NCBI GenBank assembly: GCA_035518615.1
Contig: DATIXL010000138.1
Location: forward strand, 669-64,668
From: Terriglobales bacterium
Lineage (GTDB): Bacteria > Acidobacteriota > Terriglobia > Acidiferrales > UBA7541
DNA length: 64,000 bases
Reading direction: 5' to 3'
Under the pieces are notes generated by a model. That model saw nothing but the letters and a program-made list of their open reading frames with translations. It was not told the DNA's origin and searched no databases. Both the position numbers and the translations under genes were made by a program. Positions 47,152 to 54,176 of the stretch are shown here, piece after piece (within the stretch, counting starts at the first letter, position 1; the number at the start of each line of letters is the position of its first letter).

Positions 47152-49302
47152 ATGATGGGCTCGCCTGACGAAGACGGTTCGCGCCACTGTGTTCGAACGG
47201 CTGCGTTTTCCGCGTTGGCGTTCCTTCTGTTCGCGGCCTTTCCAATTCTCGCTCGCTCGCAGAGCCCCAAACCGCTGAAGCAGGATGAAGAATGCCTCTC
47301 CTGCCACGGCCAGCCGGACTTCAAATCAGAAAAGGGTAAGAATCTTTCGATTGATCCGGCGAAACACGCGAAGAGCGTGCATGGGATTCTCGGCTGCCGC
47401 GATTGCCACACGGATCTCAAGGAATTTCCCCATCCCGCCAAAATTCAGAAGGTACAGTGCTCCACCTGCCACGCGGACGAAGCTCACGATATTCCAAATA
47501 GCATTCACGCCGCGCTGGGCGAGGACGCCTGCCAATCCTGCCACGGTGATCCGCACGTCATCGAATCCGCAAAAGCCGCTTTCACGAACTGTAAAACCTG
47601 TCACGAGCAGGAAGTCAAGGGGCTTCAGGAAAGCATTCACGGCGAGGCCGCCAAATTCGGCGATCCTTACGCCCCGAATTGCGAATCTTGCCATGGTCCG
47701 GTACATAAAATCCTCTCGTCAGGCGATTCGAACTCCACGGTGGCGAAGAAGAATCTTCCAGGGACCTGCGCCACTTGCCACAGCAATCCGGAATTTCTCT
47801 CGCACCACAAAATTCCCTTCGCGCATCCCGTCGAGCTTTATCTTCAGAGTGTGCACGGCCGCGCCGTCCAGGCGGGAAACGCGAACGCCGCCGCGTGCTC
47901 CGATTGCCACGGCAATCACGCCATTTTCCCTGCTCGCGATCCCCGTTCGAGCATCAACCATTGGAACGTCGCGAAAACCTGCGGCCAGTGTCACACGGAA
48001 ATCGCAAAAACCTATCTCGCAAGCATCCATGGCCAGGCCATGCAGGAGGGCAACACCGACGCGCCCGTGTGCACCGATTGCCATGGCGAGCACCTGATCC
48101 TCGGCCCGAAAGAGCCCCAATCCCTCGTGAATGCCGCGCGCGTTTCCACGGTAACGTGCGGCCGATGCCACGGTGAAACGCGCCTCGCCGTCCGCTACAA
48201 CCTGCCGTTGGACCGCGTGCCGACCTACGCCGACAGCTATCATGGACTGGCGAACCGTGAAGGTTCGCAGACCGTGGCCAACTGCGCCTCGTGCCACGGC
48301 GTGCACAACATTTTCCCTTCCAGCGATCCCCGATCAACGGTGAATCCCGCGAATCTCGCCAAGACCTGTGGACAGTGCCACGCAGGGGCGGGGCAAACCT
48401 TTGCGATCGGCCCCGTGCACGTGATGATTTCGAGCGCGAACGCCAACCCGGTCGTGAAATGGATTCGCTGGGTCTATCTGACGCTGATTCCTTTTACGCT
48501 CGGTTTCATGTTGTCGCACAACTTGATTGACCTGCTTGCGAAAATGCGCCGCCAGGCCGTCCGGGTGAACGGCGGGCCTCAGGTCGTTCGCATGAATCTG
48601 TGGTTCCGCATTGCGCACTGGGGCGTGATGCTGAGTTTTCCCGCGCTCGTGATTACCGGATTCGCGCTGAAATATCCGGACGCGTGGTACGCGCACCCGC
48701 TGTTGTATTGGGAAGGAACTCACTTCGCGCTGCGCGGCCTGTTGCATCGCATCGCTGCCGTGATTCTCATTGCGTCCACGCTCTACCACTTCATCCATCT
48801 TTCCGTGAACAGGCGCGATCGCGCGTTTTTGAAGGCCATGCTGCCGAAATTCAAGGACGCCACCGACCTCCTGCATGTTTTGCTCTACAACCTTGGCTGG
48901 CGGAAGGATTCGCCGAAGTTTGGAAAATTCAATTATGCGGAAAAGATGGAATATTGGGCGTTTTTGTGGGGCACCGCCGTCATGGCGCTCTCCGGTTTTC
49001 TGCTGTGGTTCAATAATTTCACGCTCCGTCATTTTCCGAAATGGATGGCCGACGCCGCCACTGCGGTGCATTTTTATGAAGCCATCCTCGCGACGTTCTC
49101 GATTTTAATTTGGCATTTTTATATCGTGATTTTCGATCCGCTCGTCTACCCCATGGACACCGCTTGGCTCGATGGAAAAGTTCCCGCCGAACATTACCGG
49201 CACACCAGGCCGGAATATCTCCACAAACTGCAAGAGCCGCCGCCAAAGCTTCCTGAAAAAGAAAAACCGCAGAAGGAAGAGAAAGAACAGAAAGAAGAGT
49301 AG
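47152..49302 (+). CDS. Multiheme cytochrome c / cytochrome b fusion (CbcL-like)
   Basis: Signal peptide, 13 CXXCH, then a multi-TM FdnI/b-type domain with His in RIAHW, LLHR, YHFIH, AVHF and IWHFY; GKFNYAEKMEYWA. Confidence 0.87.
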   Translation: MMGSPDEDGSRHCVRTAAFSALAFLLFAAFPILARSQSPKPLKQDEECLSCHGQPDFKSEKGKNLSIDPAKHAKSVHGILGCRDCHTDLKEFPHPAKIQKVQCSTCHADEAHDIPNSIHAALGEDACQSCHGDPHVIESAKAAFTNCKTCHEQEVKGLQESIHGEAAKFGDPYAPNCESCHGPVHKILSSGDSNSTVAKKNLPGTCATCHSNPEFLSHHKIPFAHPVELYLQSVHGRAVQAGNANAAACSDCHGNHAIFPARDPRSSINHWNVAKTCGQCHTEIAKTYLASIHGQAMQEGNTDAPVCTDCHGEHLILGPKEPQSLVNAARVSTVTCGRCHGETRLAVRYNLPLDRVPTYADSYHGLANREGSQTVANCASCHGVHNIFPSSDPRSTVNPANLAKTCGQCHAGAGQTFAIGPVHVMISSANANPVVKWIRWVYLTLIPFTLGFMLSHNLIDLLAKMRRQAVRVNGGPQVVRMNLWFRIAHWGVMLSFPALVITGFALKYPDAWYAHPLLYWEGTHFALRGLLHRIAAVILIASTLYHFIHLSVNRRDRAFLKAMLPKFKDATDLLHVLLYNLGWRKDSPKFGKFNYAEKMEYWAFLWGTAVMALSGFLLWFNNFTLRHFPKWMADAATAVHFYEAILATFSILIWHFYIVIFDPLVYPMDTAWLDGKVPAEHYRHTRPEYLHKLQEPPPKLPEKEKPQKEEKEQKEE

Positions 49303-49351
49303 ACTCGCACCTTGCGGTTTTGCCTGCGGCGAAATCTCTCTCGAGGGCGGC

Positions 49352-50014
49352 ATGGTACAAGTTGCCATTGATCCGGCATTGAAAGCGAAGTGCCCGCGCG
49401 TTGCTCTCGGCTGTGTTTCCGCGAGCGTCGAAGTGGCCCCGACTCCCCCGGAACTCGAAGCCGGATTGCGCGCTGCCGAGGAGAAAATCCTGAAGTTGCC
49501 GGAGCCGCGCGCGGTTTTGGAATCTTCCGCAGTTCTTGCGACGCGTGCTGGATACAAGGCGCTGGGAAAAGATCCGGCTCGCTATCGAGGATCCGCAGAA
49601 GCTTTGCTTCGCCGTGTGATTTCCGGAAAGAATTTGCCGCACATCAATTCCGTTGTGGACATCATCAATCTGGTGAGCGTGGAAAGCCGGCTGCCCATCG
49701 GTCTTTACGATCTGGCGCATGTCGAAAGCGCGATAACCTTTCGCGCGGGCCGCGCCGGAGAATCCTACAAGGGCATCGGCAAATACGATTTGAATCTCGA
49801 AGATCTCCCGCTTTTCGCGGATGCGCTCGGGCCGCATGGTAGCCCAACGAGTGATTCTGAACGCACCATGGTCACTCCGGCGACGAAGCAGGTTCTGGCG
49901 ATTGTTATTTCTTTCGGTGGCGAAGCGCCGCTGGCCTCGGCCTTCTCCCGGCTGGAAGAACTTCTTCTCTGCCACGCCGCAGCGGCCAATCTCGAGACTT
50001 GTATTGCGACCTGA
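49352..50014 (+). CDS. B3/4 domain protein (PheT-like tRNA-editing fold)
   Basis: YKALGKDPARYRGSAEALLRR, INSVVDIIN, PIGLYD, DALGPHGSPTSDS. Confidence 0.9.
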   Translation: MVQVAIDPALKAKCPRVALGCVSASVEVAPTPPELEAGLRAAEEKILKLPEPRAVLESSAVLATRAGYKALGKDPARYRGSAEALLRRVISGKNLPHINSVVDIINLVSVESRLPIGLYDLAHVESAITFRAGRAGESYKGIGKYDLNLEDLPLFADALGPHGSPTSDSERTMVTPATKQVLAIVISFGGEAPLASAFSRLEELLLCHAAAANLETCIAT

Positions 50015-50020
50015 GCCTTT

Positions 50021-51175
50021 TCAACGAACTGCAGGTTCACTCACAGCCTGCTCTGAAACTCCAACCCGATTTTTGAAGAAACCGCGGGAAGCGAGGAGTT
50101 CGGCGTTCAGGAGGGCTGCGCCGGCGGCGCCGCGCACGAGATTGTGCGAGAGCAGCGTAAGCTTGACGTCCAGCAAAGGACATTCGCGTACGCGGCCGAC
50201 GACGGCGGTCATGCCATTTCCGGCGTTCAGATCGCGGCGCGGCTGAGGCCGATTTTCCTCTTCCAGCACCACGATCGGATTTTTCACCGCGGTCGGCAAC
50301 GCGGCGATCTCAGGATCTACAACAAAGTTTCGCAGCGCTTCTCGTACTTCGTGAAGACTGGCGATTTTCTTCAGGCTGAGCGAAACGGATTCGAGGTGGC
50401 CGTCCTGCACGGGAACGCGGTTGCAATGCGCGCTGATGCCCAAGCCCGCATCCACAAAGCGCGCGCCATCCCATTTGCCGAGCAGCTTCTGCGGCTCGGC
50501 TTCCATTTTCTCCTCCTCCCCACTGATGAAAGGCACGACGTTGCCAACGATGTCCATGGATGCGACGCCAGGATAACCCGCTCCCGAAACGGCCTGCATG
50601 GTGACGACAAAGATTTTCTCGAGACCGAACGCGTCAGCAAGCGGCTTGAGTACAAGAACGAGGCCTGCCGTGGAGCAGTTTGGATTGGTGACGATGAAGC
50701 CGTCCTGATAACCGCGATTCTTTCGCTGCGCATGGATGGCGTCGAGATGCGCGGCGTTCACTTCCGGGATCAGCAATGGAACGTCGGCGTCCATACGGCG
50801 ATTTTTCGAGTTGCTGACGACCGGATAGCCTGCCTGAGCGAAATTCTCCTCGGCTTGTCCGGCGACGGAGGAATCCAGCGCGGAGAAGACAAAATCGCAA
50901 TCGAGGATGGGATCGAGGTCCTTCACGACCAGGCCGCGCGCGGCACGCGGAACGGGCGCCTCCAGATGCCAGCGCACCACGTCTTCATATTTCTTGCCGG
51001 ATGATCTTTCGGAAGCGGCCACTTCGGCGAGTTCGAACCAAGGATGGTTTGCGAGGAGGTGCACGAGCCTCTGGCCCACCATTCCCGTGGCGCCGAGAAT
51101 TCCGGCGCGGAATTTCTTTTCGAGGGGCATCGCAGGCAAGCCGGCGTCGCTATTGCCGGAGAGTGCGGCACTCAT
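50021..51175 (-). CDS. asd: Aspartate-semialdehyde dehydrogenase (archaeal/fungal-like type)
   Basis: GATGMVGQR, NPNCST, MQAVSGAGYPGV, HCNRVPV, SHNLVRGAAG. Confidence 0.95.
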   Translation of the reverse strand: MSAALSGNSDAGLPAMPLEKKFRAGILGATGMVGQRLVHLLANHPWFELAEVAASERSSGKKYEDVVRWHLEAPVPRAARGLVVKDLDPILDCDFVFSALDSSVAGQAEENFAQAGYPVVSNSKNRRMDADVPLLIPEVNAAHLDAIHAQRKNRGYQDGFIVTNPNCSTAGLVLVLKPLADAFGLEKIFVVTMQAVSGAGYPGVASMDIVGNVVPFISGEEEKMEAEPQKLLGKWDGARFVDAGLGISAHCNRVPVQDGHLESVSLSLKKIASLHEVREALRNFVVDPEIAALPTAVKNPIVVLEEENRPQPRRDLNAGNGMTAVVGRVRECPLLDVKLTLLSHNLVRGAAGAALLNAELLASRGFFKNRVGVSEQAVSEPAVR

Positions 51176-52215
51176 GCATCACCCCGGCGGCTGGCATTGC
51201 GGTTCATGGGCCCAATCTTTGTACCACGATTGTGCGGCTTGAAGGTGTTGCGAACCCAAACTAGCATTTCGCGCTCGGCAGCGAGTGGAAGAACATTGGC
51301 GTGGAGCACCCTCGCGCCCGAGGAAGCAAGAGCATGCGCTTCATCGTAGGAGAGCTCGTGAAGCAGAGTCGCCTCCGCGGATTCATTGGGATTGGCGGTG
51401 AAAACGCCATCCACGTCGGTCCAAATGACGAGTTCGTCGGCGTCCACAACGTGGGCGATGATCGCGCCGGAATAATCCGAACTGTTACGGCCGAGAGTGG
51501 TGACGCGGCCATCCCGCGTGGCGCCAAGAAACCCGGTGACGACGGGCACGAGGCCGTCTTCGAAGAGGGGAAGAAGAATTTCGCGGCCGCGGCGGCGCGT
51601 TTCGTGCAAATCGGGCTTGGCGTCGCGAAAGGTGTCGCAGGTAACGACAAAATCGGAAGAGCTCACGGGGACGGAGGCAACTCCGGATTTTTCGAGGGCG
51701 GCGGAGAAGAGCCGCGCGCTGAATCGCTCGCCGAAAGAAGCGAGGCGATCCTGCCAGGCGGCATCGATAAAGGGCGGCCGCGCGCCGTGCGCTTCCGCGG
51801 GAACTTCATGAAGCAGATCGCGGCCAAGTAACCGCAGTTCATGGCGCACGCGCTGCTCGGCGGTTTCCTCCAGGCGCAACTCGCTCAGCACATCGAGATG
51901 AAACTGAACGGCGGCTTCCGCTTCGGTGCGCGCGCGGAGCCATTGGCCATTTTCGAGCCACTGGGAAATAGCTAAGAGGCGGTCGGTGACGCCTTTCATG
52001 GCGGAAACGATGACCGCGACTTGAGAGGATTTCGCGGCGTCGCGGACGAGGCCAGCCGCGTGGAACATACGCTCCGCGCCGAGCAGCGACGTCCCGCCAA
52101 ATTTGAAGGCGACGACGTGCCGCGTGGCGGTCCCGCTAGCCGCTCCTTTTTCAAATGCGACGGCGGCGGGCAAAAGTTCCTCGGCTAAATCTTCCTGCAC
52201 ATTCTCCGGGCTCAT
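51172..52215 (-). CDS. lysC: Aspartate kinase, catalytic domain only (no ACT domains)
   Basis: KFGGTS, DRLASFGE, TTLGRNSSDYS, WTDVDGV. Ends right after the kinase domain, and the stop overlaps the asd start. Confidence 0.88.
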   Translation of the reverse strand: MSPENVQEDLAEELLPAAVAFEKGAASGTATRHVVAFKFGGTSLLGAERMFHAAGLVRDAAKSSQVAVIVSAMKGVTDRLLAISQWLENGQWLRARTEAEAAVQFHLDVLSELRLEETAEQRVRHELRLLGRDLLHEVPAEAHGARPPFIDAAWQDRLASFGERFSARLFSAALEKSGVASVPVSSSDFVVTCDTFRDAKPDLHETRRRGREILLPLFEDGLVPVVTGFLGATRDGRVTTLGRNSSDYSGAIIAHVVDADELVIWTDVDGVFTANPNESAEATLLHELSYDEAHALASSGARVLHANVLPLAAEREMLVWVRNTFKPHNRGTKIGPMNRNASRRGDA

Positions 52216-52292
52216 GAGTGCTGCTCCTTGTTGGGTGACCGCTCTTTGGTTGTTTCTTTCGGGTTCACCGCGGGAGCGTCTTTGGCGGGGGC

Positions 52293-52336
52293 TGAAACGA
52301 AGAAACCCACCGCCGGTTCGCTTCTGGCGGTGGGTT
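52293..52336 (-). terminator. Attenuator terminator hairpin upstream of aspartokinase
   Basis: 11-bp stem AACCCACCGCC/GGCGGTGGGTT, followed on the minus strand by TCTTCGTTT. Confidence 0.85.
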
Positions 52337-52355
52337 CGAAACTTTTTCTAGTTGC

Positions 52356-52436
52356 CTAGCTGTTTCTCCCCTCGCCAGAAGCGCCCGTAGTCTTCTTAAT
52401 AATGATGGTCGTCGTGGTGGTCGAGATCGCGGACAT
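52356..52436 (-). CDS. Leader peptide (thrL-like) MSAISTTTTTIIIKKTTGASGEGRNS
   Basis: 26-aa ORF with 7 Thr, 4 Ile and 2 Lys codons directly upstream of the terminator. Its GCGCTTCTGGCG is complementary to CGCCAGAAGCG in the terminator (antiterminator). Alternative ATG at 52442. Confidence 0.85.
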   Translation of the reverse strand: MSAISTTTTTIIIKKTTGASGEGRNS

Positions 52437-52757
52437 CGCCATCGACGTCTTGGGGCTAATTCGCTTGGCGGAGAGAGACAACATACCGAAAGACAGACTA
52501 GCACAACTTCAGCCTGAACCAAATGAAAAATGAGTACAAGTTTCTTCCCACATCGCCAAAAACGAGACACTCAGCCGAGAATTTCTTCACGATGCATCGG
52601 ATTGCTCGCGGATCGGAACGGTATAGAATTGTCATCCTATTGAAACTAAACGAGTTGCGAACCGGAACTTTCGGCGCCGACCGGGGTTTTTAGGGCCAAG
52701 GTTCGGTGAGGACTCCAGGCGCCTCAGGGGCAACTTAGCAAGAAAGGAAACTTCGCT

Positions 52758-54176
52758 ATGAATTCCAGGAAGTGGTTTAGCGCAACACTCTTGTGCGCCT
52801 GCATCTCCTTCGCCTTTGGCTGTGGCGGCGGGAGCATGACGAGCGGCAATCTATCCAACACGCAGCAGACCGGAATGGTTTTCGTCACCGGAACGGATGC
52901 GCCGCTGCCGAGCGTCGTGTCATTTCAGGTGGACATTACGGGACTCTCGGTTTCGGACGGCGTGAATCCTCCGGTCTCCGTTCTGAACGGCACGCAGACC
53001 GTGGATTTCGCGCGGTTGAACGGTTTGCACACGCTGCTGGACATCAACACGATTCCCGCAGGATCGTACACGAGCGTGTCCGTCACGCTGGCGAATCCGC
53101 AAATTCAATATCTGAACGTCGCCAATCCGCAGACCAATCCGCCGACTCGGCCGACGATCAGTACCCTGAATTCGCAATCCACGCCGCCGGTTACGCTTTC
53201 GATGTCTCAGGTGCCGATCACTCTCTCGACTCCGCTCGTCGTCAACTCCAACGACATCATCGGCCTGGGATTCGAGTTTGATATTCGCAAATCCATTCAA
53301 GTGGATGCCATGGGACAGATCACCGGCGTCGTGAATCCAACCTTGAATCTGAAGGCCATTACACCAAGCGATGCGGACGCTTACATTGACGAATTCACCG
53401 CGGGAGTTGTGAGCGTGAACGCGACCGGCAATTCGTTCGTGCTGCAAGGGCCGCACGGGCACCAGTTCACGGTAAACGTCAACGGCCAGACGGAATGGGA
53501 AGGCACCGACACGATCAACGACTTGACGACTTCGTCCATCGTGCAGATTTCCGGCACGCTGGACCGCACCGCGGGAACGATCCTGGCAGACTCGGTGTGC
53601 ATTCTCTCACAGGACAAGTTTTTCGCGGGAGGGCTGATCACGTTTGTGGATCCAGCGACAAACACCGCAAATGACTTTGATCTTTATGTGCGGAGCGTTT
53701 TGCCGGCGGGCACGGGCTTCCAATCCGGGCAGATTTCCACGATTGACCTGACCGGAAACGAAAAGTATTTCATCTACTGGTGGCACAATAAATTCACCAG
53801 CTTCCTGTTCAACTCCGCGCTGATGGTTCCGGGGCAGCACGTGAGCATCGGCGGACCGCTTTCCAACGGCGCGGTTACGGTAAAGCGGATCGTACTGCGG
53901 CACGAAGGGCACACCGGCACGTGGCTCGTGGGAAGCACGAACGTCGGAGCGAACACGTTCCAGTTCGATTCGAACGGGCTTGCCGGGGTGCTCTTCAATG
54001 GCCCGGTCACGGTGTACGTCACCCCATTCACAAATTGGGGCGGCGGACTGACTGGTCTGGGCGACCTCTCGGGCACATCCGCGATCAACCTCCGGGTGGT
54101 CGGTCTGGTGCTCAAGGATCCTGTCAGTAGCCAGCCGGTGTTTGTGGCGCGCCGGGTAGTGGAGCTTACGGACTAA
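52758..54176 (+). CDS. Lipoprotein, DUF4382/DUF5666-like beta-rich domains
   Basis: Lipobox AFGC; TDAPLPSVVSFQVDI; DFEFDI-like and repeated GVVSVN beta motifs. Confidence 0.72.
   Translation: MNSRKWFSATLLCACISFAFGCGGGSMTSGNLSNTQQTGMVFVTGTDAPLPSVVSFQVDITGLSVSDGVNPPVSVLNGTQTVDFARLNGLHTLLDINTIPAGSYTSVSVTLANPQIQYLNVANPQTNPPTRPTISTLNSQSTPPVTLSMSQVPITLSTPLVVNSNDIIGLGFEFDIRKSIQVDAMGQITGVVNPTLNLKAITPSDADAYIDEFTAGVVSVNATGNSFVLQGPHGHQFTVNVNGQTEWEGTDTINDLTTSSIVQISGTLDRTAGTILADSVCILSQDKFFAGGLITFVDPATNTANDFDLYVRSVLPAGTGFQSGQISTIDLTGNEKYFIYWWHNKFTSFLFNSALMVPGQHVSIGGPLSNGAVTVKRIVLRHEGHTGTWLVGSTNVGANTFQFDSNGLAGVLFNGPVTVYVTPFTNWGGGLTGLGDLSGTSAINLRVVGLVLKDPVSSQPVFVARRVVELTD

Follow-up and report, generated by a model that had tools for sequence, protein, structure and literature searches.

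A conserved candidate leader-peptide attenuator before an aspartate kinase and asd operon in Acidobacteriota

Does the short Thr-, Ile- and Lys-rich open reading frame (ORF) that lies before an aspartate kinase gene in a Terriglobales bacterium work as a leader peptide, and if so, which amino acids would it report to the genes behind it? We addressed this question in a stretch of 64,000 nucleotides (the window) from contig DATIXL010000138.1 of assembly GCA_035518615.1, in which this ORF and a set of competing RNA pairings lie together on the minus strand. The sequence-only reading of the same DNA had proposed a thrL-type attenuator that senses Thr, Ile and Lys before a lysC-asd operon. Judging from its sequence, the element is very probably a classical leader-peptide (ribosome-mediated) transcription attenuator, which would control an aspartate kinase without ACT domains together with the only aspartate-semialdehyde dehydrogenase gene (asd) found in the genome. 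The core of the proposal is borne out, since the ORF, its frame, the position of its stop and all pairing strands are kept at 35 loci.

On the minus strand, MSAISTTTTTIIIKKTTGASGEGRNS is encoded in frame from an ATG at 52436 to the TAG stop at 52358-52356, and the open frame extends upstream of 52436 for another 48 nt to an ATG at 52484. The complete leader ORF (52356..52484) therefore has 42 codons plus TAG and encodes MLSLSAKRISPKTSMAMSAISTTTTTIIIKKTTGASGEGRNS; it is kept at the 35 orthologous loci. It turned out that the conserved start is the ATG at 52484, so that the Thr/Ile/Lys-rich ORF of the sequence-only reading stands, while the starts given for it (52436 or 52442) do not. The core control codons (52386..52421) are five Thr codons (52421-52407), three Ile codons (52406-52398), two Lys codons (52397-52392) and two more Thr codons (52391-52386), and additional Thr, Ile, Lys and Met codons are found upstream of this run, up to 52460. 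The leader stop UAG (52356..52358) lies at the apex of the antiterminator hairpin, 22 nt 5' of the 5' arm of the terminator, and its placement relative to RNA regions 2 and 3, described below, is conserved.

To judge conservation we used 28 loci of the genus Candidatus Acidoferrum (Acidoferrales, Acidobacteriota; soil metagenome-assembled genomes, MAGs) and 7 further public loci, 35 in total; codon, fold and promoter counts per orthologue rest on 33 distinct leaders. Every locus has the ORF, the two pairings and the hairpin (35 of 35; 28 of 28 in the genus and 7 public). The short kinase is found in 27 other genomes of the genus with 58-70% identity, and the leader ORF lies upstream of it in all 27. 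The consensus leader peptide is M(I/L)S(I/L)ATKRIT..S.MS.TSTT.K..T..ASG(A/E/D)(W/G)RNS, followed by the stop. Between AAGCG in region 1 and CGCTT in region 2, the spacing takes 12 distinct lengths, all of which are 2 mod 3 (32 of 32 loci); by our own estimate, a spacing without frame constraint would keep this remainder with a probability of about (1/3)^11. Besides, third codon positions of the leader are somewhat more variable among orthologues than the first two. Such a pattern suggests that the frame, the start and the stop of the leader are maintained by selection.

Four regions of the RNA can form alternative pairings, all of them on the minus strand. Region 1, the protector strand (52453..52483), comprises leader codons 1-11 including the motif AAGCGAA; it is a partial copy of region 3 and pairs with region 2. 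Region 2 (52362..52384; GCGCUUCUGGCGAGGGGAGAAAC) carries the codons G-A-S-G-E-G-R-N and has either region 1 or region 3 as its partner. Region 3 (52319..52342; GUUUCGAACCCACCGCCAGAAGCG) is the antiterminator partner of region 2, and its CCCACCGCC part is also the 5' arm of the terminator. The terminator-like hairpin 3:4 (52295..52336; -22.7 kcal/mol) consists of AACCCACCGCC, a loop of 11 nt, GGCGGUGGGUU and then UUUCUUCGUUU; the arms of its 11-bp stem are AACCCACCGCC (52336-52326) and GGCGGTGGGTT (52314-52304), followed by TTTCTTCGTTT (52305-52295). In the antiterminator, GCGCTTCTGGCG (52384-52373) pairs with CGCCAGAAGCG (52329-52319) over 11 bp. The Thr/Ile/Lys leader, the antiterminator and the terminator with its U-tract are all found on the minus strand where the sequence-only reading had placed them, whereas its pairing scheme was incomplete, for it missed the protector, region 1, which pairs and covaries with region 2. 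As a whole, a 221-nt stretch folds into a more stable structure than its shuffled versions (z = -3.35; 0 of 200 shuffles equal or better).

The 2:3 hairpin has a free energy of -36.8 kcal/mol in the window, the corresponding duplex ranges from -19 to -36 kcal/mol across orthologues, and 84% of its cells are paired. In region 2, the Ala codon is always GCT, and the third base of the Gly codon varies only between C and U opposite G (21 CG and 7 UG). In the terminator 3:4, pairing extends to 98.7% of cells, and the stem hardly varies among 28-33 orthologues, with a canonical U-rich tract immediately after the 11-bp GC-rich stem in 31 of 33. A simple terminator scan did not flag this hairpin, the loop of which (11 nt) exceeds the limit of the scanner (8 nt). 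The hairpin occurs only once in the window's genome, and we therefore rejected the idea that it is a generic repeated terminator of this genome.

In each of the orthologues, the first 30-39 nt or so of the ORF, which make up region 1, pair with region 2 as an extended duplex (-17.6 to -31.4 kcal/mol, with -29.4 kcal/mol in the window). The two strands covary: cognate pairs have a mean energy of -24.46 kcal/mol, compared with -22.09 +/- 0.43 kcal/mol for permuted pairs, and none of 5000 permutations was as good. In the short core helix of this duplex, 79% of cells are paired and 7 cells are compensatory. The AAGCGAA of region 1 resembles GAAGCGAA of region 3, and the partial copying of region 3 by region 1 is probably the reason for the conserved TKRIT near the N-terminus of the peptide and for its normally rare CGA codon. 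A pairing of the 5' untranslated region (UTR; UAGUCU...) with the Lys codons, which appeared in the first minimum free energy (MFE) fold, was dropped because it is not conserved in orthologues.

The genes behind the leader are also encoded on the minus strand. The aspartate kinase (51172..52215; 347 aa) consists of an AA_kinase domain only (TIGR00657, 1.4e-71; PF00696 over residues 36-323), and its relatives in the PDB, among them E. coli LysC (2j0w) and the kinase of M. jannaschii (3c1m), align with it over the kinase domains only. A second aspartate kinase, which bears two ACT domains, is encoded elsewhere in the genome (contig C6) without a leader; it reads TTLGRGGSD where the kinase behind the leader reads TTLGRNSSD. 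The name lysC given earlier to the regulated gene is thus misplaced, as this gene encodes an ACT-less paralogue and the normal ACT-bearing kinase lies elsewhere. The asd gene (50021..51175) is of the archaeal type (asd_EA; TIGR00978, 9.2e-133), and its start overlaps the stop of the kinase gene (ATGA). Because the gene downstream of asd is convergent, asd is the last gene and the operon consists of leader, kinase and asd. No other asd match was found in this 90%-complete genome, and no bacterial-type asd scored over the cut-off in any genome of the genus.

Homoserine dehydrogenase (PF00742) was not found in the 90%-complete MAG, probably owing to an assembly gap. It is present in 30 of 38 genomes of the genus, so the Thr/Met branch exists in the lineage, and hom in the relatives has no leader upstream. 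The gene convergent to asd encodes a B3/4-domain protein (49172-50014, plus strand); a minus-strand ORF of 318 aa (49019-49975) that overlaps it has no family match and is probably spurious.

An extended -10 motif (TGCTAGTCT, 52495..52503, minus strand; pattern TGnTAnnnT) ends 10 nt before the leader ATG, and 32 of 33 distinct orthologues have the motif at a distance of 15-21 nt (mostly 18-19 nt) upstream of the ATG. A -35-like hexamer, TTGGTT (52517..52522, minus strand), lies 16 nt upstream of the -10; TTG-type hexamers at similar spacing in several orthologues are weak evidence for it. The position of the -10 leaves a 5' UTR of roughly 0-4 nt, and no Shine-Dalgarno (SD) sequence was seen between the extended -10 and the leader ATG. 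Judging from the promoter position, the leader mRNA is probably leaderless, or close to it. Relatives with Cys-rich leaders (e.g. L125 and L129), which are described below, share this arrangement of -10 and ATG. In mycobacteria, leaderless polycysteine short ORFs attenuate operons, and leaderless initiation has been shown there experimentally (bioRxiv 10.1101/834739).

The sequence thus holds the parts expected of an attenuator, namely an ORF with codons of the pathway, a frame under apparent selection, a terminator, an antiterminator that shares a strand with it, and a 1:2 protector, although the protector sits in an atypical position. From these parts we infer how the switch might work. Transcription would start a few nt before the ATG at 52484, as the conserved extended -10 promoter suggests, and the 42-codon leader would be translated while RNA polymerase is still close. 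Region 2 would alternate between the 1:2 and 2:3 pairings, and region 3 between 2:3 and 3:4, the GC-rich hairpin with its U-tract. When charged tRNAs are ample, a ribosome at the UAG would cover region 2, because the stop sits in the antiterminator apex, and the 3:4 terminator would form and stop transcription near 52295. If there is no translation, 1:2 would form before the other pairings and the terminator would follow, with the same outcome. When Thr-tRNA is scarce (or Ile-tRNA, probably Lys-tRNA and perhaps Met-tRNA), the ribosome would stall between regions 1 and 2; region 2 would then be free for the emerging region 3, and the polymerase would go on into the kinase and asd genes. Since region 1 lies upstream of the control codons, antitermination would need stalled or queued ribosomes that hold region 1 off region 2.

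Folding calculations illustrate this scheme. The free RNA folds to protector plus terminator in 30 of 33 orthologues, which makes 'off' the likely default. The two global states of the window differ little in energy (-66.0 kcal/mol for terminator plus protector, -69.0 kcal/mol for the antiterminator), and in an equilibrium ribosome-mask model of the window a ribosome at the stop gives the terminator, while ribosomes at Thr1-5, Ile1-3 and Lys1 are predicted to give the antiterminator. The model serves as an illustration only, as it is tidy for the window and fails for most orthologues; this failure implies that the switch must be kinetic, as in textbook cases.

Several observations weigh against the attenuation mechanism. 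The terminator and the core of the antiterminator are almost invariant and therefore give no covariation signal either way. Two loci that keep the entire cassette depart from the rest in the U-tract after the hairpin, which is absent at L027 and weak at L020. Region 1 is at least 30 nt upstream of the control codons, where a single stalled ribosome would not cover it; the trp and his attenuators differ in this respect. With the mask at the second Lys codon of the window and at the following Thr-Thr-Gly, the model returns the terminator, which places these codons outside the productive zone. Most orthologues fold to the terminator at any mask position in the equilibrium model, whether pairing across the ribosome is allowed or forbidden. 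Finally, Ser, which is outside the aspartate family, makes up 22% of the control codons, so that some of these codons must be spacers. Besides, the state of the U-tract at L027 and L020 is a hint that intrinsic termination may not be the only way in which the hairpin acts.

As for the amino acids sensed, their identity is what we infer from the composition of the control region (691 codons from the 33 distinct leaders, with the proteome as background). Generally, Thr is the most abundant (39.7%; 5.2% in the proteome), followed by Ser (22.3%; 6.4%), Ile (13.6%; 4.9%), Lys (8.0%; 3.8%) and Met (5.9%; 1.7%), while none of the 691 codons encodes Asp, Glu, His, Gln, Trp or Tyr. Taken together, Thr, Ile, Lys and Met account for 67% of the control codons across the genus versus 15.6% in the proteome. 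By this composition, Thr is clearly the main signal, with 40% of the codons, and Ile is the second one, as in E. coli thrL. The conservation of Thr, Ile and Lys codons expected in orthologous leaders was found for Thr and Ile, which are abundant, and in part for Lys, which is present in 27 of 33 leaders and missing in six. At least one internal ATG occurs in 31 of 33 leaders, and these conserved Met codons suggest that Met may be a fourth input. With conserved Met and abundant Ser codons, the leader does not look like a clean three-amino-acid design.

Codon choice within the control region is also biased. For Ile, ATT is used 80 times and ATC 14 times (37% and 58% in the genome), and for Thr, ACT makes up 34% of the codons (13% in the genome), while ACA occurs once in 274 Thr codons. 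The control codons are nearly all ANN or UCN, for which tRNA pool sensitivity or avoidance of structure are possible reasons.

Related cassettes were found with a covariance model (R1) that spans region 2 through the terminator. There is one copy per Acidoferrum genome, and further matches in other Terriglobia and in one further class share the same hairpin and an A-S-G region 2. In other Terriglobia, a Thr-rich leader (MNFPIQKSTRITSTSTRMSTRITCLLEDGNG) precedes a full-length aspartate kinase. Other leaders contain runs of Cys codons, e.g. MAMNLQHGTAMCCCKASGRVCGGGLK and MSDSRNFRLMCCCTCCCCACVRTGAGRLLT; the hairpin is the same in them, the A-S-G codons are retained in some, and they precede genes that are sulfite reductase-like or sulfate adenylyltransferase-like, as named from N-terminal sequence alone. 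These relatives look like cysteine-sensing attenuators built on the same backbone. What the cassettes have in common is CCCACCG(C/U)C...GGCGGUGGG with a U-tract, a short ORF with A-S-G end codons that pair with the 5' flank of the hairpin, and control codons that match the pathway. They score 32-48 bits, mostly from the hairpin, and such scores do not settle common descent versus convergence. The Acidoferrum version differs from the other acidobacterial cassettes in its own apical block GGAGAAACAGCUAG, its long 5' region 1 and its Lys codons, in the ACT-less kinase and asd that it would control, and in being single-copy in the window's genome.

The Cys-run loci (MCCCK..., CCCQCCCCCCMC...) come from other Acidobacteriota and comprise L118, L119, L120, L121, L124, L125, L127 and L129, of which six (L118-L121, L125 and L129) are followed by sulfite reductase-like genes and one (L124) by a sulfate adenylyltransferase-like gene; no gene was identified behind L127. 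In one Terriglobia genome, two loci with a shared hairpin lie 5.7 kb apart: L117 (G160:C1:4199905-4200010) is a Thr-rich leader before a full-length aspartate kinase, and L129 (G160:C1:4194202-4194297) is a Cys-run leader before a sulfite reductase-like gene. A crude genome-wide scan of the window's genome for other amino-acid-run leaders with terminators gave false positives only (C7 'CCCC' and C85 'MMM').

Two further RNA features lie between the terminator and the kinase gene on the minus strand. Region 5 (52284..52292; GCCCCCGCC) is rich in C and almost a copy of region 3; in read-through RNA it can pair with region 4, and about 30 of 33 orthologues show this 4:5 hairpin in their MFE folds. 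Among orthologues region 5 reads CCCCCGCC, or CCCACCUCC in some species, and it pairs with region 4 around the U-tract (52284-52314). Downstream of it, an SD-sequestering hairpin (52223..52277) pairs the anti-SD GCUCC (52277-52273) with the kinase SD GGAGC (52227-52223). The kinase SD is at least three quarters paired, mostly to the CUCC motif, in 29 of 33 orthologue folds; the anti-SD of the orthologues is CGCUCC or GCUCC and their SD is GGAGCG. Going by these folds, the hairpin may be a second, translational layer of control.

How much of the codon pattern is signal has to be weighed against a simpler account, in which the attenuator senses Thr only, or Thr and Ile, and Lys, Met and Ser play no part in sensing, their codons being either spacers or a single mutation away from Thr codons (ACG to AAG, ATG or TCG). 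Such an account is possible but rather doubtful, whereas we put the sensing of Lys by the leader at a little short of an even chance. The dominance of Thr speaks for Thr/Ile sensing alone, as do the mere 2.1-fold enrichment of Lys over the proteome and the six leaders (of 33) with no Lys codon in the control region. The Lys codons also lie 2-6 codons before region 2, at the margin of the productive zone, and in the window model the second Lys already leads to the terminator, and Ser, which is irrelevant to the pathway, is commoner than Ile, Lys or Met. Nevertheless, the Lys codons do not behave like chance neighbours of Thr. There are 55 Lys and 3 Asn codons among the control codons, while the Thr codons available (95 ACG versus 178 ACC plus ACT) predict about twice as many Asn as Lys by the same C-to-A step. 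All of the Lys codons (55 of 55) are AAG, compared with 55% AAG usage in the genome, and they keep a conserved place near the end of the control region in the 27 leaders that have them. What's more, asd is required for making Lys and diaminopimelate and also Thr and Met, and the only one found lies in the operon.

The other two explanations concern the mode of action of the RNA itself. Control could be mainly translational or Rho-dependent, with 3:4, region 5 and the SD hairpin gating kinase translation or Rho loading and the leader ORF acting through RNA refolding. The wide occurrence of the anti-SD:SD pairing (29 of 33) and of the 4:5 hairpin (about 30 of 33), the C-rich, G-poor stretch 3' of the hairpin, and the cassette kept without a U-tract at L027 fit this explanation, which we nonetheless consider improbable: the canonical U-rich tract follows the GC-rich stem in 31 of 33 orthologues, the layout of the alternative pairings is precisely that of attenuators with intrinsic terminators, and no pairing was found that would connect the state of region 4 with the anti-SD. 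Still less probable, to a degree that we would call very unlikely, is that a protein or small ligand binds to the near-invariant hairpin and its flanks (riboswitch-like, or a protein-mediated antiterminator) and that the ORF is incidental. It is true that CCCACCGCC...GGCGGUGGG and GAAGCGAA are far more conserved than a terminator needs, next to a kinase of only 58-70% identity, and that the same hairpin recurs in other families. The invariance is, however, explained by overlapping constraints on one strand that has two partners and is also coding. A binding site would leave the frame kept over 12 spacer lengths and the fixed stop position to be accounted for, and the control codons follow the pathway on the same backbone (Thr with aspartate kinase, Cys with sulfate assimilation), as sensing by ribosomes, unlike sensing of a ligand, predicts; nor does the element match any Rfam family. 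Leader-peptide attenuation thus stays the preferred reading.

A more detailed version of leader-peptide attenuation joins several of the features above: the 42-codon ORF, itself leaderless, would read all four end products of the aspartate family (Thr, Ile, Lys and Met); queued ribosomes would keep the protector off region 2; the element would be the main control of a feedback-insensitive kinase and of asd; and it would belong to a family of modular cassettes in Acidobacteriota that are retargeted by swapped control codons. We offer this combination tentatively and regard it as rather doubtful. If the kinase is truly feedback-insensitive, it would fall mainly to the RNA switch to control the flux into the entire aspartate family, which would be of practical interest for amino-acid production strains. 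If one cassette has indeed been reused with different control codons, it would be a clear natural case of modular attenuator evolution. The locus provides a well-conserved and dissectable example of a probable attenuator in an abundant, poorly studied soil phylum.

In Proteobacteria, leader-peptide attenuation is textbook knowledge. A 2010 survey stated that it had not been shown outside Proteobacteria and Actinobacteria, and listed predicted attenuators in Acidobacteria without assigned function (PMC2965389). We found no published report of this element or of acidobacterial leader peptides, which is weak evidence as subscription journals were poorly covered; the remark of the sequence-only reading that such attenuators are poorly documented in this lineage fits this result. 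A cmscan of positions 51500-53500 against Rfam 15 (E <= 10) returned no Thr_leader (RF00506), riboswitch or T-box, and gave one chance match to a long non-coding RNA (lncRNA). The novelty lies in the lineage and the target operon, in the cassette, which is uncatalogued, in the protector at the 5' end and a start that is probably leaderless, and in the presence of Lys and Met codons.

The closest known counterpart is thrL of E. coli and other enterobacteria, a Thr/Ile-rich leader of 21 codons before the thrABC operon, in which the first regulated enzyme is likewise an aspartate kinase. Both leaders are rich in Thr and Ile, have protector, antiterminator and terminator as alternative folds, and have codons for more than one end product, and the KRI(S/T)TT start of the peptide looks similar. 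In contrast to thrL, the leader described here has 42 codons instead of 21, with conserved Lys and Met codons; its region 1 precedes the control codons and does not overlap them; it is probably leaderless; it lies before an ACT-less kinase and asd instead of thrABC; and it comes from Acidobacteriota and has no RF00506 match. Multivalent attenuation is known from the enterobacterial ilvGMEDA and ilvBN leaders, which respond to Leu, Val and Ile, so a three-amino-acid attenuator is not new as a principle. The ilv leaders resemble our element in joining several end products of a branched pathway in one leader, while pathway, amino acids and sequence differ. Tandem Lys codons as an attenuation sensor also have a precedent, for Tsubouchi et al. 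are said to have described, in J Biol Chem in 2005, a Lys-codon leader peptide in the lysine (AAA pathway) cluster of Thermus thermophilus; that leader concerns Lys only and other genes, without aspartate kinase or asd. The lysine riboswitch (L-box), which causes Lys-responsive premature termination before lysC in Firmicutes and Gammaproteobacteria, is a ligand-binding RNA without a leader ORF. It shares with the element of the window its place before an aspartate kinase gene, but the latter has a leader ORF and no Rfam riboswitch match. Finally, the mycobacterial polycysteine ORFs (bioRxiv 10.1101/834739) are similar in being short ORFs at or near the 5' end of the mRNA, without SD and with runs of product codons; they belong to Actinobacteria and sense Cys, whereas the leader described here belongs to Acidobacteriota, carries Thr, Ile and Lys codons, and has a leaderless start that is predicted from its promoter.

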